A stretch of DNA of 64,000 bases from NCBI GenBank assembly GCA_045651985.1, contig JAZRTK010000026.1, positions 36,634 to 100,633 of the forward strand, written 5' to 3'. Both the position numbers and the translations under genes were made by a program. A model generated the notes under the pieces. That model did no database searches and was not told the DNA's origin. It saw nothing but the letters and a program-made list of their open reading frames with translations. Positions 531-64,000 of the stretch are shown one piece after another; the stretch's first letter is position 1; the number at the start of each line of letters is the position of its first letter. The stretch comes from Eubacteriales bacterium (GTDB lineage: Bacteria; Bacillota; Clostridia; Oscillospirales; CAG-272).

Positions 531-1394
531 ATGATTTACTATTATGGCATCACGCAGCAAGGACACTATCACATTAAAAACGGCACGCCCTGCCAGGACG
601 CCCACAAATTCAGGAAGATAAATGAGAATTTTGCGATTGCCGCAGTTGCGGACGGACTTGGAAGCCAGAAGTATACCGACGTTGCATCAAAGATAGCCGC
701 AGAACAGTCTGTTCAATATTGCTCTGACAAAGTAAGCGAGAAAATGGAATCTGACGAGATACTTCAGACAATAAAAGAAGCGTTTGCGGCTTCTCTTGCA
801 TCGATTGAGGAGAAAGCAAAAAACGATAAAAATCCTCTTGACCAGTACGATACTACGTTGGCCGTTGCTGTTTATTTGAACGGAAATGTCTATTTCGGAA
901 ACTCGGGCGATAGCGGAATTGTTGTGCAGAATATTGATGGCACATACGAAAGCATAACTGAGCAGCAGCGAGATGAAAACGGTTGCGTTTATCCCCTGTG
1001 CTTTGGCGAAAACCATTGGACTTTCGGTGAGAAAAAAGACGTTGCGAGCGTGCTTCTTGCTACCGATGGTATTTATGAAACGCTTTTCCCTTATCTGCTT
1101 CAAGGAGAAGAAGTAAATATCTACGTTGCTTTGGCGCACTTTTTGATGAGCAATGAATGCTTGGGATTTAACAAAAAGAACGAATCTGAAGTGCAGTCAA
1201 AAATGAATGACTTCGTATCCAATATTCCCGGAGAACAGGTTTCTGACGATAAAACTGTATTGGTGATGCTTAATGACAGCATTAAAGTATCAAGTCAACC
1301 GGATAAGTATTATCAATCTCCCGACTGGGCAGCTCTGAAAAAGAAGCGCGACGAAGAATACAAAAGACAAGCATACCCACATTTATTTAATTAA
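531..1394 (+). CDS. PP2C-family Ser/Thr protein phosphatase
   Basis: AVADGLGS, GNSGDSG and LLATDGIYE match the PP2C metal-binding motif pattern. There is a 14-nt gap after the vWA gene. Confidence 0.85.
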   Translation: MIYYYGITQQGHYHIKNGTPCQDAHKFRKINENFAIAAVADGLGSQKYTDVASKIAAEQSVQYCSDKVSEKMESDEILQTIKEAFAASLASIEEKAKNDKNPLDQYDTTLAVAVYLNGNVYFGNSGDSGIVVQNIDGTYESITEQQRDENGCVYPLCFGENHWTFGEKKDVASVLLATDGIYETLFPYLLQGEEVNIYVALAHFLMSNECLGFNKKNESEVQSKMNDFVSNIPGEQVSDDKTVLVMLNDSIKVSSQPDKYYQSPDWAALKKKRDEEYKRQAYPHLFN

Positions 1395-1414
1395 CAAAAC
1401 GAAGGTAACAAACC

Positions 1415-3214
1415 ATGAAAATAGAGGAATTCAAAAACAGCGAGGTACGGGAAGCGGAGACCAACAATAAAGCAGAAAAAGAACTTCAAAATGCACAGAA
1501 TCACAAGGCGCATAGAGAGAAACTTGAAGATTATTCATGTAAAGAACTTTTCGAAATGGTGAAAAAAGATCCCGATAGAGTCATAAAGCTTAACGCGGAC
1601 TTCAGAAAAAAATATGAAGCTGAAATTCGCGATATGACGGTGGAGGAATATCGTGATCATAAGAGCAAGCTTTCAGATGGCGACAATAAAACTGAACACC
1701 TATCAAGAGGAGAAAAATTTGAAGAAAAAAACGAAAAATCCGAACAGCGAGGGCTTTTAGTTTTTTACGAACAGACAAGAGAGAAAAATAAAAGTTTTAT
1801 AACCAATGGTGGCGAGCACAAGACCTATGGCGAGGCAGTTAAACAAATTTCCGATCGCGCGGAGACATACATGAAAGAAATGGGAGTGTCTGAAGATAAG
1901 ATTAAAGCTGTTAAATCAGATATTGAAGCGGAAATTTTCAAGCAACACGAAGAGGCAAAATCAAGAGGCATAGGCGACCATGGAATACGCCATATTTATG
2001 GTAACTTTGAAAGAAGTGAAAGCTATCTAAATACAAGAAACGATGTGAGTAGCGAGCAGAAACTTGGTGTTTTGATTGCGCAAACTTATCATGATGAAGG
2101 CTATACACAAAAAAATGATTTAGTCAATAATTCCGGGGTATTGCATGGTGGTTTTGACAAAAAACACGATCTGGCAAGTTTAGAAGTTTGGAACAGTAAA
2201 AAAGATTTATATGAAACTGTTTTCAGTAAAGAAACAATCTCTTCTGTCGACAAAGCAATTGGTGAACACAATGTTAGTGTAGAAGATGATAATGGTGTTG
2301 AGACGATCAAAGCAAATACATCCAAAGAAGCCGATGTTATTGTTTCTACTGTACATATTACTGATAAATTAGCCTTAAGCGGACGAGAGAAATTTTCCGA
2401 GTTGCTATATACAGATCCCAAGTTGATCGAGTTAACCGAGGGAATGAACTCTATGTTCAAAACTCTTTTTGATGAAAAAAGTATTTTTAAAGAAAGTGAT
2501 GAAAAACAGAATTCTAAATTTTTAGAGAAATATCATTCCGTGATAAATGATTATATAGATTCAAAATATTCGCCTGAAGATGCAGTAAAATTCATAGATG
2601 CGGTTAATAAAGACATTGGATTTAATTCCGGTAAGTTTACTTCTCGAATGAATTATATTTATACTCCTTCGGATTGTTATAGATATAATCCCGAAACTAA
2701 AACTAATGAAATAACTGTTTATAAGATTGATCATGGTGATACCAAGTCACAAGATTTACAAAACGACCAGTTAAAAAAATTATATAAAGATTTGGGGTTG
2801 AATGACGATGAAATAGTAACCGCTATTAAACAAGGAGGATACGAAGATAAAGATAGAGGCTTGAGTGTTCACGTTGAAACAAAAACGGTGGATGAAATAC
2901 GCAATATCGAATCCGAAAAACATCAAGAAAACAATGATTTAAGGGAAGTTAATGAAAGAATTGATGCTGGACGAGAGCAATATCAAGAATTAAACAACAA
3001 GTTTTTGGAGATTGTCGAAAATTTGGAAGCAACGGATATAAACTACGAAGATTACGATAAGATGTGTAAAGCTTGTAATAAATCTGATGGATGTACTAAA
3101 TCCGAATTTGAAGGAAAGACGGAAACGGACCGAAAGAAACTTATAATTGAGACTGTTTCAGAAATGATAATAACTGAAGTTAGTAATACTCTTGGAAAGG
3201 AGAAATTGAAATGA
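1415..3214 (+). CDS. hypothetical protein, possible HD-type phosphohydrolase core
   Basis: 599-aa uninterrupted ORF with a K/E-rich N-terminus. GDHGIRH, then about 30 residues, then YHDEGY, then KKHDLAS and HITDKLA resembles an H..HD..D pattern. This is not verified. Confidence 0.55.
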   Translation: MKIEEFKNSEVREAETNNKAEKELQNAQNHKAHREKLEDYSCKELFEMVKKDPDRVIKLNADFRKKYEAEIRDMTVEEYRDHKSKLSDGDNKTEHLSRGEKFEEKNEKSEQRGLLVFYEQTREKNKSFITNGGEHKTYGEAVKQISDRAETYMKEMGVSEDKIKAVKSDIEAEIFKQHEEAKSRGIGDHGIRHIYGNFERSESYLNTRNDVSSEQKLGVLIAQTYHDEGYTQKNDLVNNSGVLHGGFDKKHDLASLEVWNSKKDLYETVFSKETISSVDKAIGEHNVSVEDDNGVETIKANTSKEADVIVSTVHITDKLALSGREKFSELLYTDPKLIELTEGMNSMFKTLFDEKSIFKESDEKQNSKFLEKYHSVINDYIDSKYSPEDAVKFIDAVNKDIGFNSGKFTSRMNYIYTPSDCYRYNPETKTNEITVYKIDHGDTKSQDLQNDQLKKLYKDLGLNDDEIVTAIKQGGYEDKDRGLSVHVETKTVDEIRNIESEKHQENNDLREVNERIDAGREQYQELNNKFLEIVENLEATDINYEDYDKMCKACNKSDGCTKSEFEGKTETDRKKLIIETVSEMIITEVSNTLGKEKLK

Positions 3215-3906
3215 GTTTAGGCAACGATTTTTTAGAGCTAATCAATTTACTTTGGGAAATTGAAGAATTTGATATGTGGCTTCCCAAAGAACACGGCTCC
3301 CTTGCTTATCTTATGGAACGGCTTTATGGAACTGATGCGTACGCAGAAAAATATGACAAGTTAAAATCATTGGCAACAGAGAAAAAGGCAAACGAATTGG
3401 CTAATTATATTTCTTGTGAAATTTTAGCATCGGCTCAAAATGATAACACTATAAGTGAATCTGATAAGCTGAACTTAGAGGCAATGCTTGTTAGACAACA
3501 AAAGAATTATAAAGATAAAGCGTTAACGGGATTTGGTATAATTCAAGAAAAGTATATGCCGGATTGGTTTTTTGAGATTTTTTCGAGTTACATCATGTTA
3601 GAAGAAACAAAAAGAGAAACACTTATTCTCCTATATTGTAAAAACGAAGGAATGAATCAAGAACAAGCCAACGAAGCATATAAAAGACTCTCTACGCAGT
3701 ACGATTTACTTAACGAGTTTTATTTCTATGTTAAGAATAAAAGATTCAAAAACCATTACCCAAGAACGGTAAAGAAGTTGTCGGCAAAATCTCTTTACGA
3801 AACAATTTGCGACACTCCTCTTGCCGCTTATCTGTATCTTGTGTATTTAAGAGAAGACCCAGAAAAAGCATTTGCTGAATACCATGTAAAATTGAATAAT
3901 AAATAA
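3211..3906 (+). CDS. hypothetical protein (helical, no recognisable motif)
   Basis: The start overlaps the upstream stop (ATGA at 3211-3214), implying translational coupling inside the operon. Confidence 0.6.
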   Translation: MSLGNDFLELINLLWEIEEFDMWLPKEHGSLAYLMERLYGTDAYAEKYDKLKSLATEKKANELANYISCEILASAQNDNTISESDKLNLEAMLVRQQKNYKDKALTGFGIIQEKYMPDWFFEIFSSYIMLEETKRETLILLYCKNEGMNQEQANEAYKRLSTQYDLLNEFYFYVKNKRFKNHYPRTVKKLSAKSLYETICDTPLAAYLYLVYLREDPEKAFAEYHVKLNNK

Positions 3907-3927
3907 CAATACGCCCAGGAGAAAACA

Positions 3928-6036
3928 ATGAGATACAAAGGCAATAACGATACTTATACTCTTGAAGACCAGCCTATGAAGGCGGGCGGAGAGGGTGCGA
4001 TATATTCAATTCAAAGCCATCCGGATATGGTGGCAAAGATATACCATCGAGAAAAACTGTCTAATGAGCTTGAGGAAAAAATCATCTATATGCGGAACAA
4101 TCCGCCCGAAAGTTCCATACTTAACCAGATAGCTTGGCCTTTGGACGTCATCAGAGACGGTATAGGTAACTTCGTTGGATTTGTTATGCCCAAGCTCTCT
4201 ATTGACACTGACCTTAAGGCTATCTACTCTTACCCTCCGAATCCTCAGATCCCGATTACCTATGAGCAAAAAGTTATCGTAGCTATAAATATCGCTGTCG
4301 TTATTTCAACGATTCATAGAGCGGGATACGTTTTCGGAGATTTCAATCCGTTGAATATAGGAGTCAATCTTAAGACCGGTCACGTGGCTTTTCTTGACAC
4401 CGACTCATACCACATTACAAACCAAACCTCGGGTAAGGTATATCGCTGCGAGGTTTGTCTCGATGGTTACGTAGCCCCTGAACTTATTCAGAAGTGCAAG
4501 GGTACTGATTTTGCCAGCGCCCCGCTTCCTACGTTCACGCAAGAGACTGACCGTTTCGCTCTTGCCATACATATCTTTAAGCTTCTGATGAATGGATATA
4601 CCCCCTTTAATGGCATAAAAGAGGGCGAAAGCGCATCTCAGGCATCTCCCGGAGTTGGAAATCTCGCCATCGAGAGGGACAACTATTGCTTCAAGCCCGG
4701 CAACAAGCCCCAAAGTGTTGCAACGCCTGATATCAGTGCATTTTCTCCGGATTTGCAATATCTTTTCAAGAAAACCTTTTTGGGTGGTGCCACTTCTCCC
4801 GCCCAAAGAGCAACGGCGGACGAGTGGTATCATGCTCTCCGAGAATACAAGGATAATCTTACACGTTGCAAGAATAACCCCAATCACTATTATTACGTCA
4901 ACAATAACACCTGCCCCTATTGCGATGCGGATAACAGATACAATAACAGTATGGCATCTTTTGCCAACTCTGCATCTTCAGGTGGAACAGGAGCGCGTCC
5001 AAACCAGATGAATTTTGGTGCGCCCGTTAACGTTCCCCCTCGTCAACAAAACCAAAGCTATAATAGACAACAAAACAAAAGCACTCTTGTGCGAGTGCTT
5101 CTGTGGATATTCTTGTTCCCCGTTATGTTATGTATAACAATCGGAAAAAGCAAGATGGGATTGATTTGGAAAATTTTGCTCATATATACTGTGGCGCAGA
5201 TAACTCTGTCTACACTTGGTTCATGCGCAGCTATGATTTCTGCATTTGTTGAATATGATGGAAATGGTATAGGAACCAGTACGGCGACTGCGATAACTGT
5301 GGACGTAGAAAAGCTGACGGACCAACTAATAACTGGATACAACAATTATGGATATTTTGATGGCGAAAGAGACGCTCAAGATACTGTTACAGTCAAAGGC
5401 AAACAATACACACTGACGCTCAAAAACGAAAAATTCGAAGATGGATACAGATATCTCACTTTGCTTATTGACACTAAAACAAAAGCAATTGGTAATGCTG
5501 TGATCCGAGCAAAAAGTGACGAGTATCTATCTAATGATGCGGTGCTGGAATTTGAAATTTATCAAGAAGTTGGAAATGGGCACGATCTCTACTTGAAAAA
5601 CAACATTATACGAATAACAACCTTAAATACCAATGAAGTTATCCGTGATGATCCAAGAGATCACTTTGAAATAGTTTTTAGTCATGAGGAAACCAATGGT
5701 TGGTGGGATTACCAATGGAGCAAATTCAAATTACTCGACACATCATACTCCGTCGGAGATAAGGTTGTCAAACTCTCAGTCATAGAAGATAAACGACCTG
5801 GAGCTAAAGAAGTACAGCCAGGATTGTTATTCGAGATATATGACAAAGATGACAATTTGCTTGCATCGGGAAGCTATAAGTTCACTGGCATGAAATACAG
5901 TTCGAATTATGATGACTACGGAAACAATTCTGGTGCAGCTTTTTATTTTGTTCCATATTTTGACCAGTCAGAACTGGTAGGAAAGACAGGAATTCTTTTT
6001 ATAAACACTGAATATAAATATGATTTTTGCTATTGA
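3928..6036 (+). CDS. membrane-spanning Ser/Thr-kinase-like protein (kinase + Zn-ribbon-like + 2 TM + C-terminal domain)
   Basis: Kinase landmarks are KAGGEGAIYS (G-loop), VAKIYH (Lys), GDFNPLNIGV (catalytic loop-like), FLDTDSY (DFG-equivalent) and YVAPEL. These are followed by CPYCD, a Q/N-rich linker, and hydrophobic helices LVRVLLWIFLFPVMLCITIG and ILLIYTVAQITLSTLGSCAAMISAFV. Confidence 0.8.
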   Translation: MRYKGNNDTYTLEDQPMKAGGEGAIYSIQSHPDMVAKIYHREKLSNELEEKIIYMRNNPPESSILNQIAWPLDVIRDGIGNFVGFVMPKLSIDTDLKAIYSYPPNPQIPITYEQKVIVAINIAVVISTIHRAGYVFGDFNPLNIGVNLKTGHVAFLDTDSYHITNQTSGKVYRCEVCLDGYVAPELIQKCKGTDFASAPLPTFTQETDRFALAIHIFKLLMNGYTPFNGIKEGESASQASPGVGNLAIERDNYCFKPGNKPQSVATPDISAFSPDLQYLFKKTFLGGATSPAQRATADEWYHALREYKDNLTRCKNNPNHYYYVNNNTCPYCDADNRYNNSMASFANSASSGGTGARPNQMNFGAPVNVPPRQQNQSYNRQQNKSTLVRVLLWIFLFPVMLCITIGKSKMGLIWKILLIYTVAQITLSTLGSCAAMISAFVEYDGNGIGTSTATAITVDVEKLTDQLITGYNNYGYFDGERDAQDTVTVKGKQYTLTLKNEKFEDGYRYLTLLIDTKTKAIGNAVIRAKSDEYLSNDAVLEFEIYQEVGNGHDLYLKNNIIRITTLNTNEVIRDDPRDHFEIVFSHEETNGWWDYQWSKFKLLDTSYSVGDKVVKLSVIEDKRPGAKEVQPGLLFEIYDKDDNLLASGSYKFTGMKYSSNYDDYGNNSGAAFYFVPYFDQSELVGKTGILFINTEYKYDFCY

Positions 6037-6070
6037 GATTTGTAAAAACAAATAGTGATGAGGCTTGTTA

Positions 6071-9000
6071 ATGAATACTATTTCATCTTTTGATATGAAT
6101 AATAAGGCACAGCTTGTCCACAACGGTATTGTCACCGCGGACAAATTTATCAACAAGAGTTATTTGATAAATCTCGCTGATAATGAAGTGCTTCCCTTGA
6201 GTGATGAGTTTAATACGACCAAGACGATCAGGCTGTATCAGATTGAAAAGCTCGTTTATGACAAGGAAGAAAATATATGTGATAAGCTTATAAGCGTTTA
6301 CAGCTCTCTTTTGAATATTGACAGTTCCGTTCTTCTTGTTATCTCCGGTGAGGAGAGTGCCATCACCTTACACATCGGAATCCGCTCCGTGAATAACACT
6401 TCCGTTGCGGGTTTGATATTAGAAAAAAGTTTTTTGGGTAATTTCCCCGGCAGCTCACTGAAGAGACTTCGGAATGATGAAATAGAAGCCGTGATGAAAA
6501 GCGGTGTTGTTTCTGATTCTGTGGGGGTATTGAAGAACATATCATGTGTGACAGTCGTTCCCTCTATGCGAGACGAAAACAAAGATAAGTTTGTGCAGGG
6601 TATTGAGAAATTCATAGATACTATGCGCGGTGCAAAATATACTGCGGTTTTGATAGCTCAGCCTGTAAGCAAACAGGGTTTGGAGCAGAGAAAACGCGGA
6701 CTTGAGGAAATGTATTCCGCTTTGTCTCCTATGGCGAAAACAACACTTTCTTACGCAGAAAATTACAGCGAAGCAGTTACTAACGGAATGAGCGAAAATT
6801 TTTCCCACTCTATTAATAACAGCGTAAATATCACCAACGGCTCTAACAGCAGCGATAGTTATTCGAGAAGCAAAGGCGCAAATCTTGGTTTGTGGGGATC
6901 CGGAGTGAATACCGGGACATCACGTAGCTATACGTCGGGGCAATCATGGTCGAAATCGGTTACGCAAGGAAGCGCTGATACAACATCTACAGGAACTAAT
7001 AGTTCGACCTCGCAAACTACAGGGAATACAAGAACTCTTTCAGCAGAGCATCAAAATAAATCTGTAGCTGAGTTGATGACGAAACTGGAGGAACAATTAA
7101 AGAGAATTAAAGAGTGCGAGGGCTTTGGCCTTTGGGATTGCGCTTGTTATTTTACTTCCGATGATATCCAAACAGCTGTGGTTGCGGCAAATACATATAA
7201 AGCGCTAATGCTCGGAGACAATACTTCGGTTGAAAATTCTCATGTAAACATATGGGATATTCGTTCAAAAGATGAAAACAGAAAAAACGTATTGGATTAT
7301 GTAAAATGCGGTATACACCCGGTAATGAAAATCGAACCTGAGCAAGGATACGCTCCCCAAATCGTAACGCCCGGAAGCTATATCAGCGGAAAGGAACTTC
7401 CTTTTTTGGTCGGTATACCTCGCAAGTCAATTCCCGGGGTTCCTGTAAATAGCATTGCCGAGTTTGGAAGAAATGTATTTGTTCAAAATAGGGCAAGTGA
7501 CAGAGAGACTGTTCAACTTGGAAGCATATACCATATGGGCAAGATAGAAAAAAACAAAGTGGAACTTGACCTTAACAGTTTTACATCTCATTGTTTTGTC
7601 ACGGGCTCAACCGGTTCGGGAAAGTCAAATACGGTATATTGCCTTTTAGAAAAGTTTCACCAAAACCATATCCCCTTTCTTGTCATAGAACCGGCAAAAG
7701 GTGAATATAAATCGGCTTTTGGGGCATTGGAGAATATAAACATTATTTCGACAAATCCGTATGTAGGACAAATGCTCAAATTAAATCCCTTCAGCTTCAA
7801 TTCGCATATACATATTCTGGAGCATTTGGATAGGCTGATAGAGATCTTTAACGCTTGCTGGGAAATGTATGCCGCTATGCCGGCAATCTTAAAAGATGCC
7901 ATAGAGAAAATTTACGTTGACAAGGGCTGGGACCTACTGAATTCGGTTTATCTTGGTGAAGGCGAGCCGGTCTTTCCAAATTTCGGGGATCTTATGAAAG
8001 CACTTCCCGATATTATCAACGATTCGGGTTATTCCTCCGATACCAAAGGGGACTACATAGGCGCATTGGTTACTCGAGTGACATCATTGACTAACGGTAT
8101 ATCCGGTCAGATTTTTTGCGACAATTACGAGATTCACGATTCCGTTCTGTTTGATGAAAACACAGTTGTCGATTTGAGCCGAGTGGGGGCTATGGAGACA
8201 AAATCTCTTATTATGGGACTGATTGTGCTCAAATTGACAGAACACCGTATGGCAAATTCAAGCAGAGCAAATTCGGAACTTAAGCACATTACCGTTTTGG
8301 AGGAGGCCCACAATCTTTTGAAACGCTCATCGGGAGAATCGGCAGGCAGAAATCTTGTAGGGAAATCTGTCGAGATGATATGTAATAGTATAGCCGAGAT
8401 GCGTACATACGGAGAAGGATTTATCATTGTGGATCAATCTCCTACGGCGATCGATGTTGCAGCTATTAAAAATACGAATACTAAAATCATAATGCGTTTA
8501 CCTGAACGAAACGACTGTGAAGCCGTCGGAAATGCTGCTGGATTGAATGAGGATCAAAAAAAGGAAATAAGCAAGCTTGAAACGGGCGTTGCTGTCGTCA
8601 TGCAGAATAATTGGCTTGAGGCGGTTTTGGCGCGCGTGGATCTGTTCTCCAATCTTTATGAGGCCTGTATTCCGACCGTTTCCTATGAAGCTATGAAGGC
8701 GTTCAAAAGTATTGTGGTTCGGGAACTTATGAATCAATATATCATAGAAAAACAAATGAACCTTGAACGCATGCTTGGGGCGATTGACTCTGTTGATATT
8801 CCCTTTCACAAAAAGGCGGAAATGCGCCGTTGTATGGAGGGAACGTTGAAGCGTCTTTCCACAAAACGCGATGTAGATTTTTTCTCCGAAACACTTTATA
8901 ATCTTGTCGGGGCAAACTCCGTGTTTGAGATAGCAGAGTCGACCATTTTACCATCCAAAGAGACTGAGTATAGGTATGCTCCCGAAAGTGTTCGTGAGTG

Positions 9001-9157
9001 GAAATCACGGATCAGTGACGGTGTGAGAAGATGTATATCTCTACCGGAAGAATATATTCAAGCATTGCTTGATTTTTTGCTTTATGTCCAAGAAGAAAGA
9101 AACAAGAAAATCGATTATTACGAGATACAAAAAATCTTAGAGCAGGAAGTGCGATAA
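6071..9157 (+). CDS. HerA/FtsK-like (DUF87-type) P-loop ATPase with large N-terminal region
   Basis: Walker A is GSTGSGKSNT (nt 7604-7627) and Walker B-like is ITVLEEAHNL (about nt 8294-8311), with IIVDQSP and KIIMRLP downstream. ATG 6071 is preferred over TTG 6065 because GAGG lies about 9 nt upstream. Confidence 0.8.
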   Translation: MNTISSFDMNNKAQLVHNGIVTADKFINKSYLINLADNEVLPLSDEFNTTKTIRLYQIEKLVYDKEENICDKLISVYSSLLNIDSSVLLVISGEESAITLHIGIRSVNNTSVAGLILEKSFLGNFPGSSLKRLRNDEIEAVMKSGVVSDSVGVLKNISCVTVVPSMRDENKDKFVQGIEKFIDTMRGAKYTAVLIAQPVSKQGLEQRKRGLEEMYSALSPMAKTTLSYAENYSEAVTNGMSENFSHSINNSVNITNGSNSSDSYSRSKGANLGLWGSGVNTGTSRSYTSGQSWSKSVTQGSADTTSTGTNSSTSQTTGNTRTLSAEHQNKSVAELMTKLEEQLKRIKECEGFGLWDCACYFTSDDIQTAVVAANTYKALMLGDNTSVENSHVNIWDIRSKDENRKNVLDYVKCGIHPVMKIEPEQGYAPQIVTPGSYISGKELPFLVGIPRKSIPGVPVNSIAEFGRNVFVQNRASDRETVQLGSIYHMGKIEKNKVELDLNSFTSHCFVTGSTGSGKSNTVYCLLEKFHQNHIPFLVIEPAKGEYKSAFGALENINIISTNPYVGQMLKLNPFSFNSHIHILEHLDRLIEIFNACWEMYAAMPAILKDAIEKIYVDKGWDLLNSVYLGEGEPVFPNFGDLMKALPDIINDSGYSSDTKGDYIGALVTRVTSLTNGISGQIFCDNYEIHDSVLFDENTVVDLSRVGAMETKSLIMGLIVLKLTEHRMANSSRANSELKHITVLEEAHNLLKRSSGESAGRNLVGKSVEMICNSIAEMRTYGEGFIIVDQSPTAIDVAAIKNTNTKIIMRLPERNDCEAVGNAAGLNEDQKKEISKLETGVAVVMQNNWLEAVLARVDLFSNLYEACIPTVSYEAMKAFKSIVVRELMNQYIIEKQMNLERMLGAIDSVDIPFHKKAEMRRCMEGTLKRLSTKRDVDFFSETLYNLVGANSVFEIAESTILPSKETEYRYAPESVREWKSRISDGVRRCISLPEEYIQALLDFLLYVQEERNKKIDYYEIQKILEQEVR

Positions 9158-10737
9158 TGAACGAGCTAAAAATTGTCTTGAATCCTTATAACAGCGTCAA
9201 TACTGTCTCTCTGGACGGACGTTCACTTTCTGTTTACAGCGAGCTATGCAACTATATGAAAAGACCTTTTCTCGCTTGGGCAAACGATTTTTTCAAGGCG
9301 GCGGAAACTGAAATCAATGATTTTTTTGACTGTACCGTTGTAAGTGAGCGATTTGAGGCACTGTTTTTGACTGACCTATGTTTGAGGTCAGATGCCTGTA
9401 ATAAAATCAAAGCTGAAAATTTTGAGATAAACTTTCTTGTGGGCAAAAGATTTGATGTTGTAAAAAAATTGGCTGATAAGTATGGCGTTGCGTATTCGGT
9501 TGACGAATTTAAGCTTCCTGTTTCTTTGAATGGATTTGAAAATTTGCGCTCTGAAATGTTTAAACGGTCCTATGGCGAAGGAGATTTTTTAGAAATCGTC
9601 GATAAAACTCCGGCAACGCCAAATGCAAACATTACACTCGTTGTCTCAACTGACCGTCAAATACGTTGTTGTGAAAACGGAAAATACATATGGGAAGTGC
9701 CACGAGATGCGATAGTTGAAAGTGTTGAGGCTATAACCGATCGTTTTGTAAAGATTCCCTTTATCGTAAAAACGTCACAGAAGATACGTGCTTGTAAATT
9801 GCTTTCGTCAGATGACAGCGAGCTCCTTACGCTTGCAACGACAATAACACCGATACTTTCTGTGGATAATTTGAAAAAACTCGAAGTTGGCGAATCGACG
9901 GAGTTAAAGGTTAAGGTGTCTCCGACTAAAAACGCTTTGCCGTCTCTCAGAATAGAGGTTGACGACAATAGTATAGCGGTTGCAGATGGACTTACTATAA
10001 CAGCATTAAGTCCCGGCGAAACTGAAATATGCATCTTTCGAGCCGACGAGGCAATTCCTTTTGCGAAAAAACAGATTACAGTATTTCGGCAAAATCGAGT
10101 ACAAAAAATTGTGTTAGATAGACCTGAGCCTACAGTGGGAATTGGCAAAACACAGAAAATCGACATAAAGGTTTTTCCGGTCGATGCGGATGACAGTAAA
10201 TATGTTGTATGGTCTGTAAACAATCCGAATATCGCCACCGTAAATGAGTCTGGAGAAGTAACCGCGATAGCAAGCGGGAGGGTTGTTGTCACAGCATCGA
10301 CAATGAATCAAAAGGAAAGCGTTATTATCGATGTGATGCCCAATATATCAAAAATCACTTTTTCTGATACGAACGTCCAACTTCTCAAAGGTGAAAGCTA
10401 TTCTGTTGGTGTTGTATGCGAGCCTGCAAAGTGTTTTAATAACGAATATAATTGCAGGAGCAGTAATGATAACGTTGCTCTTGCAGAAAAACAAATTGAT
10501 GGCTCAATACTGATAACAGCCAAAGAACCGGGCATATGTACTGCAGTATGCTCGGCGGTTGAGGGCAACTGTATGGAGAGTTGCTCAATAGAGGTTTTGG
10601 ACCCTGTTGAAGTGGAACAAAAAATCAAGAAAAAACAAATGTCTGTTGATATTGCGTGTATTGTTGGAATTCCTCTTGCAGTCGTTGTAATTCTTACAAT
10701 TGTAACCATCATTCTTAATGCGCTTACTCACGGATAG
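9157..10737 (+). CDS. Big_2 (bacterial Ig-like) repeat protein with C-terminal membrane anchor
   Basis: Big_2-like signatures are ITALSPGETEICIF, VNESGEVTAIASGRVVVTAS and ILITAKEPGICTAVCS. The terminal hydrophobic helix is IVGIPLAVVVILTIVTIILNAL. TAATG overlaps the ATPase stop. Confidence 0.75.
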   Translation: MNELKIVLNPYNSVNTVSLDGRSLSVYSELCNYMKRPFLAWANDFFKAAETEINDFFDCTVVSERFEALFLTDLCLRSDACNKIKAENFEINFLVGKRFDVVKKLADKYGVAYSVDEFKLPVSLNGFENLRSEMFKRSYGEGDFLEIVDKTPATPNANITLVVSTDRQIRCCENGKYIWEVPRDAIVESVEAITDRFVKIPFIVKTSQKIRACKLLSSDDSELLTLATTITPILSVDNLKKLEVGESTELKVKVSPTKNALPSLRIEVDDNSIAVADGLTITALSPGETEICIFRADEAIPFAKKQITVFRQNRVQKIVLDRPEPTVGIGKTQKIDIKVFPVDADDSKYVVWSVNNPNIATVNESGEVTAIASGRVVVTASTMNQKESVIIDVMPNISKITFSDTNVQLLKGESYSVGVVCEPAKCFNNEYNCRSSNDNVALAEKQIDGSILITAKEPGICTAVCSAVEGNCMESCSIEVLDPVEVEQKIKKKQMSVDIACIVGIPLAVVVILTIVTIILNALTHG

Positions 10738-10783: not shown

Positions 10784-10819
10784 GCTCCGACGGAATCAAT
10801 CCGTCGGAGCTTTTGCTTT
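10784..10819 (+). terminator. intrinsic terminator closing the seven-gene operon
   Basis: GCTCCGACGG-aatcaat-CCGTCGGAGC followed by TTTTGCTTT. It overlaps the last codons of the convergent transposase ORF. Confidence 0.7.
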
Positions 10820-12430
10820 GATTTTGAAATGGCCTGCTTTGATGTAGGCGAGGTCCTCATCGGAAATTCGGTTTTTGCCGTCGCTCTCGAGCAATCGGTA
10901 AATAATTGCGTTAATGTCCGGGTGCTTCAGCAGCATCGAGATCACAGACCAGTTGGACAGCTTTCTGTAACCCTTGAGCCCGCACTCCTTACATATCTCA
11001 TGGAACTTTGTTTTCGGAATGCTCAGAAGATACTCGCGCTTGTTAAACGTCTTAAATCCGTCCTCCTCGTTGAACTTGAAAAATTTGTTTTCCGTTGCTA
11101 TTCTCGCCGCCTTTGTCTCTGCTTTGAGGATGGAAACGTACTTGCCTGTGGTCTTTGAAAGATCCACTGTCTGATTTTCAACGTCCAACGTGGTGTAGTT
11201 GACTTTCAGCTTCAGAAGTTCCTCGAAGATCATTTCTGCGTCCTTGAATGAAGTAGGTCTGCCGCTGTGATCAACCGCCCAATTCTTCACGAAAGTGAAA
11301 AATCCCACGTAATCCTGCAGATATTTCGTGCTTACATTGGTCTTATCCTTGTAAATCACGTCCTTGAGGTCTTTGTGGAGCTCGTTGACCCTTGCGAGGC
11401 TGAGCCCGTTAGACTTCTTTAGAGCGCAAAATTCGGCGTATGAGAGCTCGCCTCGATTAACTATTCGCTCTATTGCGCCGTCCTCGTATAACGATTTCAA
11501 TATCCTCTTGTTTTTTGCCGCTGTTTCAGCGGCTTTTTTGGGGTTTGAGGGATCGGGTTTCTCATATCCGTACTTTTTCAATATTTCCTCATAAGTTGAG
11601 GGCCTGATATAATGGGGAATATTGAAAAGACTGCTGTATTCCTCGTATGTACTGTTTCCGTCGCTGCATAAGAATGATGGATTTTCAAAATGCTCCTCGA
11701 ACAATTCAATGAACTGCTCTGTTGTCATTTTTCCAAGCCCGCTGACTTTACATACACAATAACCTCTGTTATCGATAGCTGTTATGATTGTTGCAAACTC
11801 GGGACCCATAACGCCGAGCTTTGACGGCGACAAGCCATATCGAGGAGTTCTTATCTCGCCCTTCAAAGTGCTCGTGAGATTGCGACTTCCTTTCTGAGAC
11901 TCCCGAACAAAGGTCTCGTCTACCTGAATAACACCTGTAAGCTTTGGCATAGGAACGGACGCCATTGCGTGCATCAGCTTCAATCGCCATAGCCATACGG
12001 TCTTGGGGTCAATTTCATCACAACCGTAGTCTTTTTTCAGAATGTTAACGGTGCTTTGAATTGAGATGTTGTTCAATAGAGTTTCCAACACCTTTACCCA
12101 AATGTCCCAATGCCAGCGAGTTTTCTCAAGCATCGTGCCGCTGAACAGGGAATATTCGTGCTCACAGTCCTTACATTTGTATTTCTGTATTCCTGTGGAC
12201 CGCTTTCCGTTCTTAACCACGTTCTCCGAGCCACAAGCTGGACAGACCGAGTTGATGCCGAGCTTTTCAAGATGAAGCTGATGATCAAGTGTTATGAGCT
12301 TCCTCATTTCCTTGTCAAAACTGCTTTTTGTTCGGTCGGAATATTCTTCTACAAGCTCCTTGAATTCGGCGTAAGACAGTCTGTTGAGTATGTCGGATAA
12401 TTTCTCCTTAGTTGGTTTTGTTATTGCCAT
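10796..12430 (-). CDS. IS1595-family (ISXO2-like) DDE transposase with extended C-terminus
   Basis: N-terminal Zn-ribbon (CPACGS...KCKDCEH) and VIQVDETFVRESQKG DDE-type motif. Start moved to ATG 12430 (MAITKPTKEK), which has GGAGG 8 nt upstream. Confidence 0.75.
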   Translation of the reverse strand: MAITKPTKEKLSDILNRLSYAEFKELVEEYSDRTKSSFDKEMRKLITLDHQLHLEKLGINSVCPACGSENVVKNGKRSTGIQKYKCKDCEHEYSLFSGTMLEKTRWHWDIWVKVLETLLNNISIQSTVNILKKDYGCDEIDPKTVWLWRLKLMHAMASVPMPKLTGVIQVDETFVRESQKGSRNLTSTLKGEIRTPRYGLSPSKLGVMGPEFATIITAIDNRGYCVCKVSGLGKMTTEQFIELFEEHFENPSFLCSDGNSTYEEYSSLFNIPHYIRPSTYEEILKKYGYEKPDPSNPKKAAETAAKNKRILKSLYEDGAIERIVNRGELSYAEFCALKKSNGLSLARVNELHKDLKDVIYKDKTNVSTKYLQDYVGFFTFVKNWAVDHSGRPTSFKDAEMIFEELLKLKVNYTTLDVENQTVDLSKTTGKYVSILKAETKAARIATENKFFKFNEEDGFKTFNKREYLLSIPKTKFHEICKECGLKGYRKLSNWSVISMLLKHPDINAIIYRLLESDGKNRISDEDLAYIKAGHFKIKAKAPTD

Positions 12431-12785
12431 TTCTTTACCTCCAAATGATTTCTGTACCCTCGCTATAAGTATGACTGAAACAGCGTCAGACCAACCTGAA
12501 GCTATGGGCAGTGTTGCCTCAATTTTCAACCGCGAGAGGGTACTTTTTCATCTGAAATTTTGTTATCGTTTCTCCGCAAACTATGCGAAAATCACATCTT
12601 CGAAATTACAGTTTTGTTTCGTTTTGGGGCCGTTTTTCCCCAAAATCAATTATTCCGGCCTTATTTTATCATATTTTTGAGATTTTTTCTATTCAAAAGT
12701 GTTTTTTGCCGCGATTTGTGCAACTTGTACAAACATTTATAGCCATCAGTCAATTCTTGGAATATATAAGAAGTGAAAAACAATC

Positions 12786-12814
12786 TTGATTTATTGTTTA
12801 TTTTGTAGTATAAT
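12786..12814 (+). promoter_or_regulatory. sigma-A-type promoter for dGTPase-like gene
   Basis: TTGATT (12786-12791), 17-nt spacer, TATAAT (12809-12814), 20 nt upstream of ATG 12834. Confidence 0.55.
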
Positions 12815-12833
12815 GTAATTAATAAGGAAAATT

Positions 12834-14246
12834 ATGACAACAACGGAGACGAACATGGAAAATTCTTCAACTAATTACTCATATATTGAAGGAATTGTTT
12901 ACTCAAAACAATTCCGTAATTTGCAGGATAAGACACAGCTGTTTTATTCAGCTCCCAAAAGACAAGTTAGGACGAGATTAACACACACAATAGAGGTAAA
13001 GATTATAGCACATGATATAGGTCAGCAAATCAACAAAAAAATGGGTACAGAGTTGATCGACTTAAATTTAGTGGAAGCTATCGCCTTAGCACATGATATA
13101 GGGCACACTCCCTTCGGGCATGTTGGCGAAAGAACTATAAATGATATTGTTTCAAAAAAAGATAATTTGGGCGGATTAACTAATGCTAACGGCACTTCTC
13201 AAATTAGATTTAAGCATAATGTTAACTCTATGAGAATTCTCGAAGAATTGAATATTCAAGACTGGAGAATTATTGATGGCGCATTGTGTCATACGAGAAT
13301 TTTTTATAAGAACGATAAAAATTCATCTTCTAAAAATCCTTATAACCCATTTGAGGTAAGCCCTTCTAAAATAGCAAAATTTATATACAATGAACATGGC
13401 ATTCTGTTTAACGCCCCGACGCAAGGAAAGGTGTATAGCTTAACCTTGGAAGGGCAAATTGTATCTATTGCTGATGAAGTTGCACAAAGAATAGCAGATA
13501 TAAGCGATGGCTTGGAATCTAGATATTTTGAAAAAATCAAAAGTATTCTTTCAACGAAAAAAGAAATACATACGCGTGCTGAATTGGAACAATTTATCCG
13601 CGAAATGCTTATCAAAGATGTTGTTGACAGCACTACTGAAAACATAAAAGCACAGCCTCAAAATTTTAAAAGTAATTCTGGTATTAGTCACGCTGTATAC
13701 TATCAAGAAGTAGTTGGATTTTCAGAAAGCATGAAAGCCAAAAATGATGAATTAGAAGAATACATAAAAATCATAATGGCTCAAAGCGAAAGCGTCAGGG
13801 AGTCTGACAGTCGTTCGAGATATATTATTCGTCAATTGTACAAAGCATATTTAAATGATATAACTTTGCTGCCGGATGACTTTATCGATGATTATTTTGG
13901 TAAAATAATTAACAAACAAATCTTTTTAAATGCTATTAGCACACTCCGTGGCGCATCGCGTAAAAACAAATCAAATCAAGATTTACATAAAACACTTGAA
14001 GTTCTTGATGAGATTCAAAAGCAAAGATGGAGAATCGATAAGGGCGATTTACCACAAAAGACAGTTGCTATTAGAATTGATTTGGTGAGAAGTTATTTTG
14101 AAATTTTGATAAAAAATCATCGTACTAATAACATGCCTTGCTTAAATGATCTATTTGACGAATATATTCTTAAAATTGGTTTTTACATAGCAGGTTTAAC
14201 AAACACGGAAGCTTTTACTACATACAACCGAATTTATGGACATTAA
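12834..14246 (+). CDS. dGTP triphosphohydrolase-like HD-domain protein
   Basis: RTRLTHTIEVKIIAHDIG and ALAHDIGHTPFGHVGE are the hallmark dGTPase/Dgt-family HD motifs. The gene is very AT-rich. Confidence 0.8.
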   Translation: MTTTETNMENSSTNYSYIEGIVYSKQFRNLQDKTQLFYSAPKRQVRTRLTHTIEVKIIAHDIGQQINKKMGTELIDLNLVEAIALAHDIGHTPFGHVGERTINDIVSKKDNLGGLTNANGTSQIRFKHNVNSMRILEELNIQDWRIIDGALCHTRIFYKNDKNSSSKNPYNPFEVSPSKIAKFIYNEHGILFNAPTQGKVYSLTLEGQIVSIADEVAQRIADISDGLESRYFEKIKSILSTKKEIHTRAELEQFIREMLIKDVVDSTTENIKAQPQNFKSNSGISHAVYYQEVVGFSESMKAKNDELEEYIKIIMAQSESVRESDSRSRYIIRQLYKAYLNDITLLPDDFIDDYFGKIINKQIFLNAISTLRGASRKNKSNQDLHKTLEVLDEIQKQRWRIDKGDLPQKTVAIRIDLVRSYFEILIKNHRTNNMPCLNDLFDEYILKIGFYIAGLTNTEAFTTYNRIYGH

Positions 14247-14307
14247 GCTTTTAGAACTATCTGTTATTTGAAAGGTTTAAAAAAACAAAAAAATTCATGA
14301 AAAGATC

Positions 14308-14336
14308 TTGACAAAAAGCGAATTGTTTGTTATAAT
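14308..14336 (+). promoter_or_regulatory. perfect consensus promoter with no ORF downstream
   Basis: TTGACA (14308-14313), 17-nt spacer, TATAAT (14331-14336). Confidence 0.7.
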
Positions 14337-14342
14337 AGAGCA

Positions 14343-14451
14343 TACACTTTATATAGGAATTTGCATTAGTTCCTATCCTTGGTTGATCGTAAACCTGAAA
14401 CGATCTTCCGTATAGCGGAACGAGAGCCCTGCATAGGGCTCTTTCCTTTTA
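14343..14451 (+). ncRNA. candidate small RNA (about 105 nt, four hairpins, unknown class)
   Basis: Hairpins are ATAGGAA/TTCCTAT (14353-14376), GATCGT/ACGATC (14385-14405), TTCCG/CGGAA (14406-14420), and the terminator-like AGAGCCCT-gcat-AGGGCTCT plus a T-rich tail (14423-14451). No plausible ORF. Confidence 0.45.
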
Positions 14452-14523
14452 TAAAAGTATTGCGGAGTTCAAATCCCGTGAGTACTTTTACGAAAATATC
14501 TTTTTTATAGCCAATAGACAAAA

Positions 14524-14558
14524 AAGAACAGACTCCCATTTGAGAGTCTGTTCTTTTT
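14524..14558. terminator. bidirectional intrinsic terminator
   Basis: AGAACAGACTC-ccatttga-GAGTCTGTTCT with an A-run before and a T-run after. Confidence 0.7.
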
Positions 14559-14750
14559 TCGTCGAGGACGGTTTTCATCCATGACCGACGGAGGAGGTCA
14601 TGGGCTTTGAGCCTGAGCGCCGCCGGTGGCGGAAAAAGCGAGGGTGAAAAGGGAGAAAATAAGGAGCGTTGGGCGTGCGACTTGCGCCGCGCTCAACGCG
14701 ACTATATTTTCGACAGGGCAATGAAAAATCCCATCCCCGCAACCAAAAAG

Positions 14751-14780
14751 AAAAGACACCCGAACGGGTGTCTTTTCTTT
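14751..14780. terminator. hairpin terminator, copy 1 of GACACCC..GGGTGTC
   Basis: AAAAGACACCC-gaac-GGGTGTCTTTT flanked by A- and T-runs. Confidence 0.65.
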
Positions 14781-14910
14781 TAGACCGAAGGTGGACTTTA
14801 TCCATGACCAACGGCGAAGGAACGGGGGGGTGAGCCCATTCGCTCGCAGTGCGGGAAGCAGCGACTCCACCGAGAGGGTCAAACCAAATCAAATTATGAA
14901 ATTACACAAA

Positions 14911-14936
14911 AAATGACACCCGAAGGGTGTCTTTTT
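14911..14936. terminator. hairpin terminator, copy 2 of GACACCC..GGGTGTC
   Basis: GACACCC-gaa-GGGTGTC (14915-14931) with an A-run before and TTTTT after. Confidence 0.65.
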
Positions 14937-15022
14937 CCTTTTTATTTGCCCACACTGTTGTTTTCTTTCGTTTATGGGGTAAAATATATATACATATATA
15001 TTACGAAAAGGAGATCGATACT

Positions 15023-15877
15023 ATGCCTAAATCATCTATCACAACAACCGATTTAACAAATTTTAAGAACCATTTATATAATGAAGAAAAAAGTGCTCTG
15101 ACCATCGAAAAATACCTGCGCGACGTGCGTGCTTTTACGGCATACCTGGACCACAGGCCACTGTCAAAGGAGATCACCGTCGAATGGAAACGGTCACTGG
15201 AAGAAAGGCGGTACAGACCCCGTTCAATAAACTCCATGATCGCAAGTCTGAACAGCTTTCTGATCTTTTTGGGGGCACACGACTGTAAGGTAAAAGCCAT
15301 AAGGATCCAAAAGGCAATATACATGCCCGAAGAAAAGGAGCTGACGAAAACAGAATACAAGCGTTTGCTTTCCTCGGCAAAAAAACAGGAGCGCCTGAGC
15401 CTTATCATGCGCGCCATTTGCGCTACGGGAATAAGGGTTTCCGAGCTGAAATATTTTACGGTGGAGGCGGTCAGAGAGCGGGAGGTCTCGGTCAAATGCA
15501 AAAGCAAGAACCGAACGATAATAATACCGCAAGAGCTGAGTCGCCTTTTGCTGAATTACGCCAAAAAGCAAGGTATCGACAGCGGCGCTATCTTTTTGAC
15601 GCGAGGCGGAAAGCCCCTTGACAGAAGCTATATCTGGGCGCAGATGAAAAAGTGCTGCATAACGGCGCACGTAAGCGCGTCAAAGGTATTCCCACACAAT
15701 TTGCGAAAGCTTTTCGCACGAACTTTTTACGCAATAGAGAAGGACATTGCCAAATTAGCCGACATTCTCGGACACAGCAGCATCGAAACGACGCGAATTT
15801 ATATAATGGCAACGGGTATTGAGCACAGACGTCAAATCGAGAAACTCGGTCTGGTTTTTGCTGATTTTTTTGCTTAG
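15023..15877 (+). CDS. tyrosine recombinase (XerC/D-phage integrase family)
   Basis: Has a core-binding N-domain, ATGIRVSEL (Arg), HNLRKLFA, LGHSSIETTRIY (His..Arg..Tyr). Start moved to ATG 15023 (AAAGGAG 9 nt upstream) rather than the ORF-track start at 14927. Confidence 0.85.
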   Translation: MPKSSITTTDLTNFKNHLYNEEKSALTIEKYLRDVRAFTAYLDHRPLSKEITVEWKRSLEERRYRPRSINSMIASLNSFLIFLGAHDCKVKAIRIQKAIYMPEEKELTKTEYKRLLSSAKKQERLSLIMRAICATGIRVSELKYFTVEAVREREVSVKCKSKNRTIIIPQELSRLLLNYAKKQGIDSGAIFLTRGGKPLDRSYIWAQMKKCCITAHVSASKVFPHNLRKLFARTFYAIEKDIAKLADILGHSSIETTRIYIMATGIEHRRQIEKLGLVFADFFA

Positions 15878-15889
15878 AAAACAAAAAAC

Positions 15890-15911
15890 CCACATAATTC
15901 GCATTATGTGG
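15890..15911. repeat. recombinase-type dyad site, copy 1 (core TCGC)
   Basis: CCACATAAT-TCGC-ATTATGTGG, starting 12 nt after the recombinase stop codon. Confidence 0.75.
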
Positions 15912-15932
15912 AAAATAAAAATAATCGCCTTG

Positions 15933-15952
15933 ACATAATTCGCATTATGTGG
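15933..15952. repeat. recombinase-type dyad site, copy 2 (core TCGC)
   Basis: ACATAAT-TCGC-ATTATGTGG, in direct orientation relative to copy 1. Confidence 0.75.
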
Positions 15953-16008
15953 ATTCAAGGCTTAAATAAAAGCGTACATAAATACCGCTTGGATTTGTAT
16001 TATACACG

Positions 16009-63788: not shown

Positions 63789-64000
63789 GGCGACCGAGCT
63801 AAGCGATCGCGCGGTATGGTGCCGAAAGGTGTTACCGTGAGGAAAGTCCGGGCTTCACAGGGCAGGATAACTGATAACGTCAGCCGGAGGCGACTCCCGG
63901 GAAAGTGCAACAGAAATAAACCGCCAAGGCGACTTGGTAAGGATGGAAAGGCGAGGTAAGAGCTCACCCAAGGGGCGGGTAACCGTTCTTTGCTGTAAAC
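63789..64000 (+). ncRNA. rnpB: RNase P RNA, bacterial type A, 3' end cut by window edge
   Basis: GAGGAAAGTCCGGGC (from 63839), AGTGCAACAGAAA, GGTAAGAGCTCACC and GGGTAACC..GCTGTAAAC match the conserved type-A core in the order seen in E. coli M1 RNA. Confidence 0.85.

Follow-up and report, generated by a model that had tools for sequence, protein, structure and literature searches.

Why would a promoter of perfect consensus stand directly behind a dGTPase-like gene and read into DNA that encodes no protein? The question is raised by positions 14308–14451 of a 64,000-nucleotide (nt) stretch of DNA from an Eubacteriales bacterium (contig JAZRTK010000026.1), referred to in full as the window. A sequence-only reading of the window had described the site as an orphan promoter driving an RNA of ~105 nt. 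Comparison with homologous loci, cited by number (L001, L003, and so on), revealed that this RNA gene is conserved as the second of two in a ~1.69-kb cassette (~12765–14451), the first encoding the dGTPase-like enzyme. The association is complete within the inspected sample: each of the 13 distinct host loci with upstream DNA, the window included, has the RNA directly 3′ of the dGTPase stop codon. The promoter is not an orphan, and the placement immediately behind the dGTPase-like gene, which the same reading had recorded and whose co-occurrence it had proposed to check, holds at every locus.

The proteins encoded at the host loci are 100, 90, 89, 82, 71, 70, 61, 57, 48, 45, and 43% identical to that of the window, and two more loci came from scans for the RNA only. 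After the dGTPase stop codon, each homolog contig carries a promoter of the TTGACA/TATAAT type, ~105–120 nt of homologous sequence, and a terminator. The blastn block common to L001 and L003 covers window positions 12765/12769 to 14450/14456, that is, from ahead of the dGTPase promoter to the U-tract of the RNA; nucleotide similarity starts ~90 nt 5′ of the dGTPase start codon and stops at the U-tract. The left edge of the cassette is marked by the dGTPase promoter (12786–12814, plus strand; TTGATT, 17 nt, TATAAT), which is kept upstream of the homologs. Flanking genes are unrelated between loci and include insertion sequence (IS) elements, serine and tyrosine recombinases, and housekeeping genes. 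Those beyond the RNA, often convergent, comprise serine recombinases, an IS3 element, an RDD protein, an acetyltransferase, and a UvrD-like helicase.

A search for the RNA only, with the region of its second hairpin (H2) as a degenerate pattern, gave two matches in 185,579 representative genomes, in metagenome-assembled genomes of an Oscillospiraceae and an Eubacteriales member, and one real match in the JGI metagenomes. The Oscillospiraceae and metagenome matches (L015 and L020) adjoin the same dGTPase; the Eubacteriales contig (L016) begins at the RNA, and its upstream side falls outside the contig. Three further pattern matches in soil metagenomes (L017–L019) lie inside an ORF (open reading frame) and are due to chance. 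A blastn search with the RNA against plasmids and GenBank phages returned no real match, and tblastn with the enzyme returned no plasmid match and phage matches of at most 34% identity. The RNA is absent beside a full-length dGTPase homolog at 29.5% identity and beside three viral dGTPases at 29–32% identity; the association is thus clade-specific.

The promoter of the small RNA (14308–14336, plus strand) consists of TTGACA (14308–14313), a 17-nt spacer, and TATAAT (14331–14336). It matches the consensus at 12 of 12 positions, as the sequence-only reading had it, and carries in addition a TG extension (14328–14329, TG-n before TATAAT). An A-rich stretch precedes it, whose length between the dGTPase stop codon and the −35 element differs between loci. 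A promoter scan of 13000–16000 found the full 12/12 consensus at this site only. Promoter-like sites as a class are not enriched in that interval (nine found, 8.0 expected from shuffles), so a lone match proves little. The RNA promoter is nevertheless more than a chance match, because it is retained in every homologous locus: both hexamers and their 17-nt spacing are kept in 13 of 13 while the spacer sequence drifts, and the −35 element reads TTGACA in 11, TTGGAA in one, and TTGATA in one. This pattern suggests a promoter under selection and fits a need for a high, continuous supply of RNA; we propose that this near-perfect promoter gives constitutive, abundant production of the RNA.

The RNA gene (~14342–14451, plus strand) spans ~105–110 nt, with a 5′ end predicted from the promoter and a 3′ end at the U-tract. 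Its minimum-free-energy (MFE) fold (14343–14451) has a z-score of −4.9, and none of 200 shuffles folds as well. Hairpin H1 (14353–14376) pairs 14353–14361 with 14368–14376 into a 9-base-pair (bp) stem capped by an apical UGCAUU loop. A conserved linker, UCCUUGGUU, leads into H2, the two together occupying 14377–14405; here 14385–14390 pairs with 14400–14405 (6 bp) around a near-invariant 9-nt loop, AAACCUGAA. H3 (14406–14420), of variable length and sequence, pairs 14406–14410 with 14416–14420. H4 and its U-rich tail (14422–14451) form an intrinsic terminator, also called by the terminator scanner, in which 14424–14430 pairs with 14435–14441 in a stem extendable to 14422–14443 and followed by CUUUCCUUUU. 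The MFE fold contains H1, H2, and the terminator as in this four-hairpin model but pairs the 5′ strand of H3 with the GG at 14381–14382; covariation favours the four hairpins.

In an alignment of 13 sequences, the four helices are 95–96% paired, versus 32–53% when the partners are slid by 1–3 columns. Compensatory double changes occur in 20 of the 27 pairs, with a contribution from every helix, and none of 500 column shuffles reached these values of pairing and compensation. H1 shows compensatory changes in six of nine pairs, with 94% of cells paired, and H4 in six of seven. H2 is 100% paired and compensated in four of six pairs; for example, GAUCGU/ACGAUC becomes GGACAU/AUGUUC in L021. The stem of H3 is preserved by differing sequences across loci, with 4 to 12 pairs (10 standard). 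Each homolog, folded singly, gives the same row of hairpins. Folding, covariation, and the terminator scan thus bear out the ~105-nt RNA of four successive hairpins, the last a terminator, that the sequence-only reading had drawn and had proposed to examine for covariation; the covariation and the homolog folds argue that the structure of the RNA is under selection. A covariance model built on the alignment (R1) finds a single copy in the 64-kb window (14340–14447, 122 bits), scores the homologs at 82–127 bits, and reaches at most 20 bits on 700 kb of unrelated viral DNA. Weak minus-strand matches to R1 just downstream of the RNA (19–24 bits) are ascribed to the palindromic terminator, and a second RNA gene on that strand was rejected.

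The most conserved positions lie outside the stems, in the 5′ CAUACAC, the linker UUGGUUG, the 9-nt loop of H2, and the apical parts of H1 and H4. The last two look alike: U-GCAU-A tops H4 as it does H1, within a shared apical Y-U-GCAU-A-R, and a 10-mer, CUUGCAUAAG, is present in both hairpins of L009. L027 is the host locus that has diverged most (43% protein identity), and there both loops have become UUGAAGU, a parallel change that fits one reader surface on a homo-oligomer. Kissing of H1 and H4 through palindromic UGCA loops was rejected as a conserved feature because UGAAGU, present in L027 and in a viral copy (L029, described below), cannot pair with itself; the two loops of these RNAs still match each other despite having lost self-complementarity. 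The GGUU of the linker and the AACC of the H2 loop are invariant, and pairing between them is possible in all 13 sequences. A pseudoknot between them around H2 was set aside, since invariant bases give no covariation and its geometry, with no linker nucleotide, is sterically doubtful.

At the 3′ boundary, the L006–L008 loci (82%-identical cassette) show a break of similarity within the 3′ arm of the terminator, between GGGTT and GAACAGG (~5565–5580 in L006), adjoined by an IS3-family transposase. Their RNA lacks the U-tract and would read through.

No protein product is apparent. The RNA contains no ATG or GTG, its TTG-started and minus-strand ORFs are not conserved among homologs, homolog substitutions are non-synonymous in the TTG frame, and no conserved small ORF was found on either strand of the non-coding parts of the cassette. 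A coding role was rejected on these grounds, in agreement with the absence of an ORF reported in the sequence-only reading. That reading had also failed to match a riboswitch or a known class of small RNA (sRNA) and had suggested an Rfam scan. At the gathering score, Rfam 15 passes only RNase P RNA in the whole window (bacterial class A, 63791–64000, truncated by the window end), and at E up to 10 on 14100–15100 nothing overlaps 14337–14451. An RNase P RNA of class A, and not class B, would suit a host of the Clostridia type better than one of the Bacilli type. ARAGORN detects zero tRNA or transfer-messenger RNA (tmRNA) genes in the window, which rejects either identity, and TRF finds no tandem repeat in 12500–15000 other than a 2-copy 9-mer at 14641–14659. 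The RNA constitutes a new family, missed by current annotation pipelines.

The enzyme (12855–14246, plus strand) is a 463-amino acid (aa) HD-domain protein that begins at an ATG behind GGAG; the longest ORF starts at 12834, and the start at 12855 agrees with a 463-aa database protein (P0001). It matches Pfam HD (1.6e-11), HD_assoc (8.5e-8), and the PADLOC dGTPase model (6.6e-47), and scores 163.6 bits against TIGR01353 (cut-off 152.35). The HD domain with the H...HD...D metal site and the HD-associated domain, which together define the dGTPase family, are both present, and the motif HDIGHTPFGH is invariant in the clade. An AlphaFold2 model (mean predicted local distance difference test, pLDDT, 84.5) has as its top Foldseek matches the dGTPases of L. 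blandensis, T. thermophilus, and E. coli, the anti-phage Shewanella dGTPase (Sp-dGTPase, 9p8w), and CloA (9p8s); TM-scores to solved dGTPases are ~0.55, with 16–18% identity in the structural alignments. The protein falls below the curated cut-offs for anti-phage dGTPases (109 versus 400 bits for NCBIfam NF041026, 80 versus 383 for NF003701) although PADLOC recognizes it, which suggests a divergent dGTPase clade whose anti-phage role is inferred from context.

One copy of the RNA lies in a predicted virus. A looser pattern scan of IMG/VR returned a single true match, on contig IMGVR_UViG_3300045988_171924 (288,789 bp), at L029:5926–6022 (56.6 bits, E ~1e-11). The viral copy starts 1 nt after the tRNA-Phe of a tRNA-Met/Glu/Phe array (cluster and RNA, L029:5679–6022) and has neither its own promoter nor the CAUACAC leader; the fusion to the tRNA cluster points to expression and processing within a tRNA operon. 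It is nearly base-for-base the L027 host RNA, including the variant UGAAG loops, with the 18 nt that form H3 cleanly deleted, and H1, H2, and H4 still fold. In the 6.6 kb around it, PHROG matches comprise a FolD-like enzyme, a NinI-like phosphoesterase, and a nucleotidyltransferase, and a dGTPase is absent; two protein-based scans and a degenerate back-translation of HDIGHTPFGH found no dGTPase of the clade on the viral contig or in the viral collection. A small lipoprotein-like ORF follows the viral RNA at L029 6240. A loose H1 pattern gave at least 120 chance matches in viral contigs, and none of 80 loci among the matches listed was confirmed by R1.

What would such an RNA do for its enzyme? 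Precedents exist for related effectors. The sRNA AvcI binds and inhibits AvcD, a dCTP deaminase that serves in phage defence; AvcI is made in excess and vanishes once transcription stops. Transcription shut-off likewise activates anti-phage dGTPases, whose toxin–antitoxin (TA) status is unclear (PMC10511110). CloA, an effector of the dGTPase family, is toxic without the inhibitor that its partner gene provides, and the mechanisms that regulate defence dNTPases (deoxynucleoside triphosphatases) are unknown (PMC12265719). Phages can evade RNA-antitoxin systems by means of antitoxin mimics, such as the pseudo-ToxI of phage PhiTE (PMC3475682).

By analogy, we propose, with confidence and doubt in equal parts, that the RNA binds and restrains a dNTP-depleting enzyme in the manner of type III systems and of AvcI with AvcD, that phage-induced transcription shut-off releases the enzyme, and that the viral copy is a decoy. 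The RNA would bind the oligomeric enzyme directly, most plausibly through the look-alike apical loops of H1 and H4 and an invariant centre made of GGUUG and the H2 loop; the two loops suggest two equivalent sites on the protein, and the centre suggests a third contact. Binding would keep the enzyme inactive. Once a phage halts transcription in the host, the supply of new RNA would cease, and the freed enzyme would deplete dNTPs and so stop the phage from synthesizing its DNA. A copy carried by a phage and expressed within a tRNA operon would keep the enzyme inhibited and so serve as counter-defence. Strict co-occurrence, conserved loops, and the viral copy are indirect support for membership in type III in the broad sense. 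The suggestion in the sequence-only reading of a regulatory or antitoxin-like RNA of the islet fits the evidence, with inhibition itself a proposed step.

The functionally nearest system to the cassette is AvcID, a non-canonical type III pair of a dCTP/dCMP deaminase and an sRNA. Both combine a nucleotide-depleting enzyme with a dedicated small RNA in a compact two-gene mobile module. They differ in that the cassette enzyme is an HD-domain dGTPase and AvcD a deaminase, in that the cassette RNA measures ~105 nt and AvcI about 171–300 nt, and in gene organization: the cassette RNA follows its enzyme gene and has a consensus promoter and a terminator of its own, whereas AvcI is reportedly encoded upstream of avcD. 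Inhibition has been demonstrated for AvcI and is proposed here, and Rfam gives no match for the cassette RNA. The enzyme shares its fold and catalytic HD motif with Clover and with the anti-phage dGTPases of single-gene systems (Tal et al. 2022; Sp-dGTPase 9p8w; octameric Vibrio Vdg); it is 16–18% identical to the solved ones in the structural alignment and stays at 109 bits against the NCBIfam cut-off of 400. Clover, which pairs the dGTPase CloA with the nucleotidyltransferase CloB, offers a second parallel in that its effector is toxic alone and restrained by the product of the partner gene, but the restraint there is a small nucleotide and the one proposed here is an RNA.

Several points weigh against RNA restraint. 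The charge and isoelectric point (pI) of the protein give no clear RNA-binding signature. The parallel change of the H1 and H4 loops amounts to one evolutionary event. There is one viral example only, whose viral status comes from the IMG/VR classification and non-hallmark PHROG matches; 6.6 kb of its 288.8 kb was read, and a divergent dGTPase elsewhere on the contig is possible. A viral decoy would also fit an activating or sensing RNA. Binding, inhibition, instability of the RNA, and the trigger are all steps that we infer, and toxicity of the enzyme is putative. Finally, the cassette shares with ToxIN, CptIN, and TenpIN an anti-phage role, mobility, and, as proposed here, direct neutralization of a protein by RNA, but it departs from the canonical type III plan, in which a tandem-repeat RNA array precedes the gene of an endoribonuclease toxin and is processed by that toxin. 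The cassette has a single-copy RNA without tandem repeats, a reversed gene order with the RNA downstream rather than ahead of the toxin with a terminator between, and a phosphohydrolase in place of the endoribonuclease, and is therefore not ToxIN-like.

The strongest rival, which we nonetheless consider unlikely, makes the RNA a positive cofactor: an oligomerization scaffold, an allosteric activator, or a sensor of a phage cue. It explains the linkage, the structure, and the conserved loops equally well, and the viral copy without H3 could then be a dominant-negative decoy. Nucleic acids do modulate relatives of the enzyme. E. coli Dgt is reported to bind single-stranded DNA effectors (the work behind 4x9e and 4xds), and guanine-containing single-stranded DNA and RNA alter the oligomeric state of SAMHD1 (PMC10711556). 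Against a cofactor, an inhibitor is the simplest gain for a phage to carry, a very strong constitutive promoter fits a restraint that is always in excess, and the known partners of nucleotide-depleting effectors (AvcI and the product of CloB) are inhibitory.

Base pairing with the dGTPase mRNA or other mRNAs, in a type I-like or trans-acting manner, is less probable still. The anatomy is that of a typical sRNA: ~100 nt long, the RNA has its own promoter, keeps conserved single-stranded stretches, and ends in a Rho-independent terminator with a U-tail. A CUUCC where H2 meets H3 could contact the ribosome-binding site, GGAG. However, the predicted duplexes with the cognate translation-initiation regions are no more stable than those of shuffled sRNAs (z −1.2 to +1.2, 12 loci), and perfect 8-mer complementarity to the dGTPase mRNA is as frequent as expected by chance and lacks conservation. 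The CUUCC lies partly within H3 and is altered in L011 and L022 with no matching change in the ribosome-binding site. A type I TA system was rejected, as both an antisense overlap and a conserved small toxic ORF are absent. Among known sRNAs, the 3′-untranslated region (3′-UTR)-derived "type I" class, such as DapZ and MicL, arises from its own promoter at the 3′ end of a gene and shares the terminator of the mRNA; these RNAs act in enterobacteria by Hfq-dependent base pairing on unrelated mRNAs. The cassette RNA, unlike them, appears partnered with the product of its own upstream gene, and no pairing target was found for it.

We rate at the same low level the idea that the element works in cis, as a stabilizing and terminating 3′-UTR of the dGTPase mRNA, with an incidental promoter. 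The scanner finds no terminator between the dGTPase stop codon and H4, so the dGTPase mRNA probably also carries the RNA as its 3′ end and shares the H4 terminator, and the element always lies downstream of the dGTPase on the same strand. What speaks against a purely cis-acting element is the conservation of both promoter hexamers and their spacing in every locus amid drifting sequence, the varying length of the A-rich DNA that separates the stop codon from the −35 element, and the existence of a viral copy without the gene, within a tRNA operon. A strong promoter that leads into no ORF, and the lack of a known-family match, could also suggest a leader or riboswitch whose gene was lost, as the sequence-only reading had entertained, or a chance promoter beside chance hairpins, but this is highly improbable, and a leader or riboswitch was rejected, because the downstream genes differ from locus to locus, are often on the opposite strand, and include no conserved same-strand gene, whereas compensatory changes preserve the RNA and its own terminator always ends it.

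RNA restraint of the enzyme would be of a known kind, that of RNA-restrained nucleotide-depleting defence enzymes; new here are the RNA family, the architecture, and a possible natural phage countermeasure. In the literature searched, we found no RNA partner for any dGTPase, and overlap with very recent work is possible. On a tentative view, held a little short of even confidence, the cassette would be the first RNA-restrained dGTPase/dNTPase immune module, with release tied to the loss of host transcription and a three-hairpin phage mimic in a tRNA operon. How anti-phage dGTPases are kept harmless and then switched on is a gap to which the cassette offers a testable answer for one clade, within 1.7 kb holding two promoters, one enzyme, and one RNA of 105 nt, and with natural variation that maps the helices and the conserved candidates for contact. 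If RNA restraint is correct, control by an RNA antitoxin arose independently for two nucleotide-depleting effectors, a deaminase and a dGTPase, and the cassette provides a sequence-defined RNA–protein pair for structural work. If the viral copy is a decoy, it would count as a natural anti-defence element made of RNA and as another example of the contents of phage tRNA clusters; the copy hints at how nucleotide-depleting enzymes are restrained and evaded.

In the window, the cassette forms an islet of low G+C content (31–35% versus 42–48% in the flanks) between an IS1595-like transposase (10796–12529, minus strand) and a tyrosine recombinase (14927–15877). The transposase, a homolog of the IS1595/IS1-type zinc-ribbon class, is unusually long (577 aa), and the model covers only residues ~96–309. 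Integron-integrase models score far below their cut-offs on the recombinase. The second strong terminator that the sequence-only reading had placed at 14524–14558 exists, as a 19-nt palindrome (14520–14559) that is 95% complementary and lies between A- and T-runs, but it belongs to the variable flank and not to the RNA unit.

The ~80 nt that follow the RNA terminator (14452–14532) are common to some loci only; they end in ATATCTTTTTTATAGCC(A/C)ATAGACAAA, with a different bidirectional terminator behind it. Counterparts are present in L016 (~1592–1667, minus strand), L009 (~4624–4700), and L013 (5039–5076), of which the last is displaced downstream by 550 nt and comes behind a tRNA 3′ fragment (GCAGGTTCAAGTCCTGTCGCCCGTACCA), and the window copy holds a T-arm-like GGAGTTCAAATCC. 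This stretch may be what is left of an attachment site, or else a host flank that is conserved. Three related terminator-like palindromes (14520–14559, 14745–14781, and 14908–14941) are spaced by 224 and 160 nt, and the G+C-rich non-coding spacers between them start alike, with CATCCATGACCGACGG and TATCCATGACCAACGG. Just 5′ of the tyrosine recombinase gene, 14726–14758 matches the 3′ end and trailer of the tRNA-Met gene of L003 (91% over 34 nt). The region 14518–14941 looks like the attachment (att) end of an integrative element.

An identical 17-mer, GGTGGCGGAAAAAGCGA, is present at 14626–14642 of the window, in G+C-rich non-coding DNA that borders the cassette, and at L028:3245–3261, where it adjoins a distant dGTPase on a "Bacteriophage sp." contig from human faeces; the match could be due to chance (~0.03 expected) or to a shared repeat element. 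Upstream of the IS element, a block of six genes on the same strand (531–10737, plus strand) encodes a PP2C phosphatase, a 1030-aa HerA/FtsK-like ATPase, a Big_2-domain protein, and three proteins without Pfam matches (599, 231, and 702 aa), and might represent a defence or transport system.

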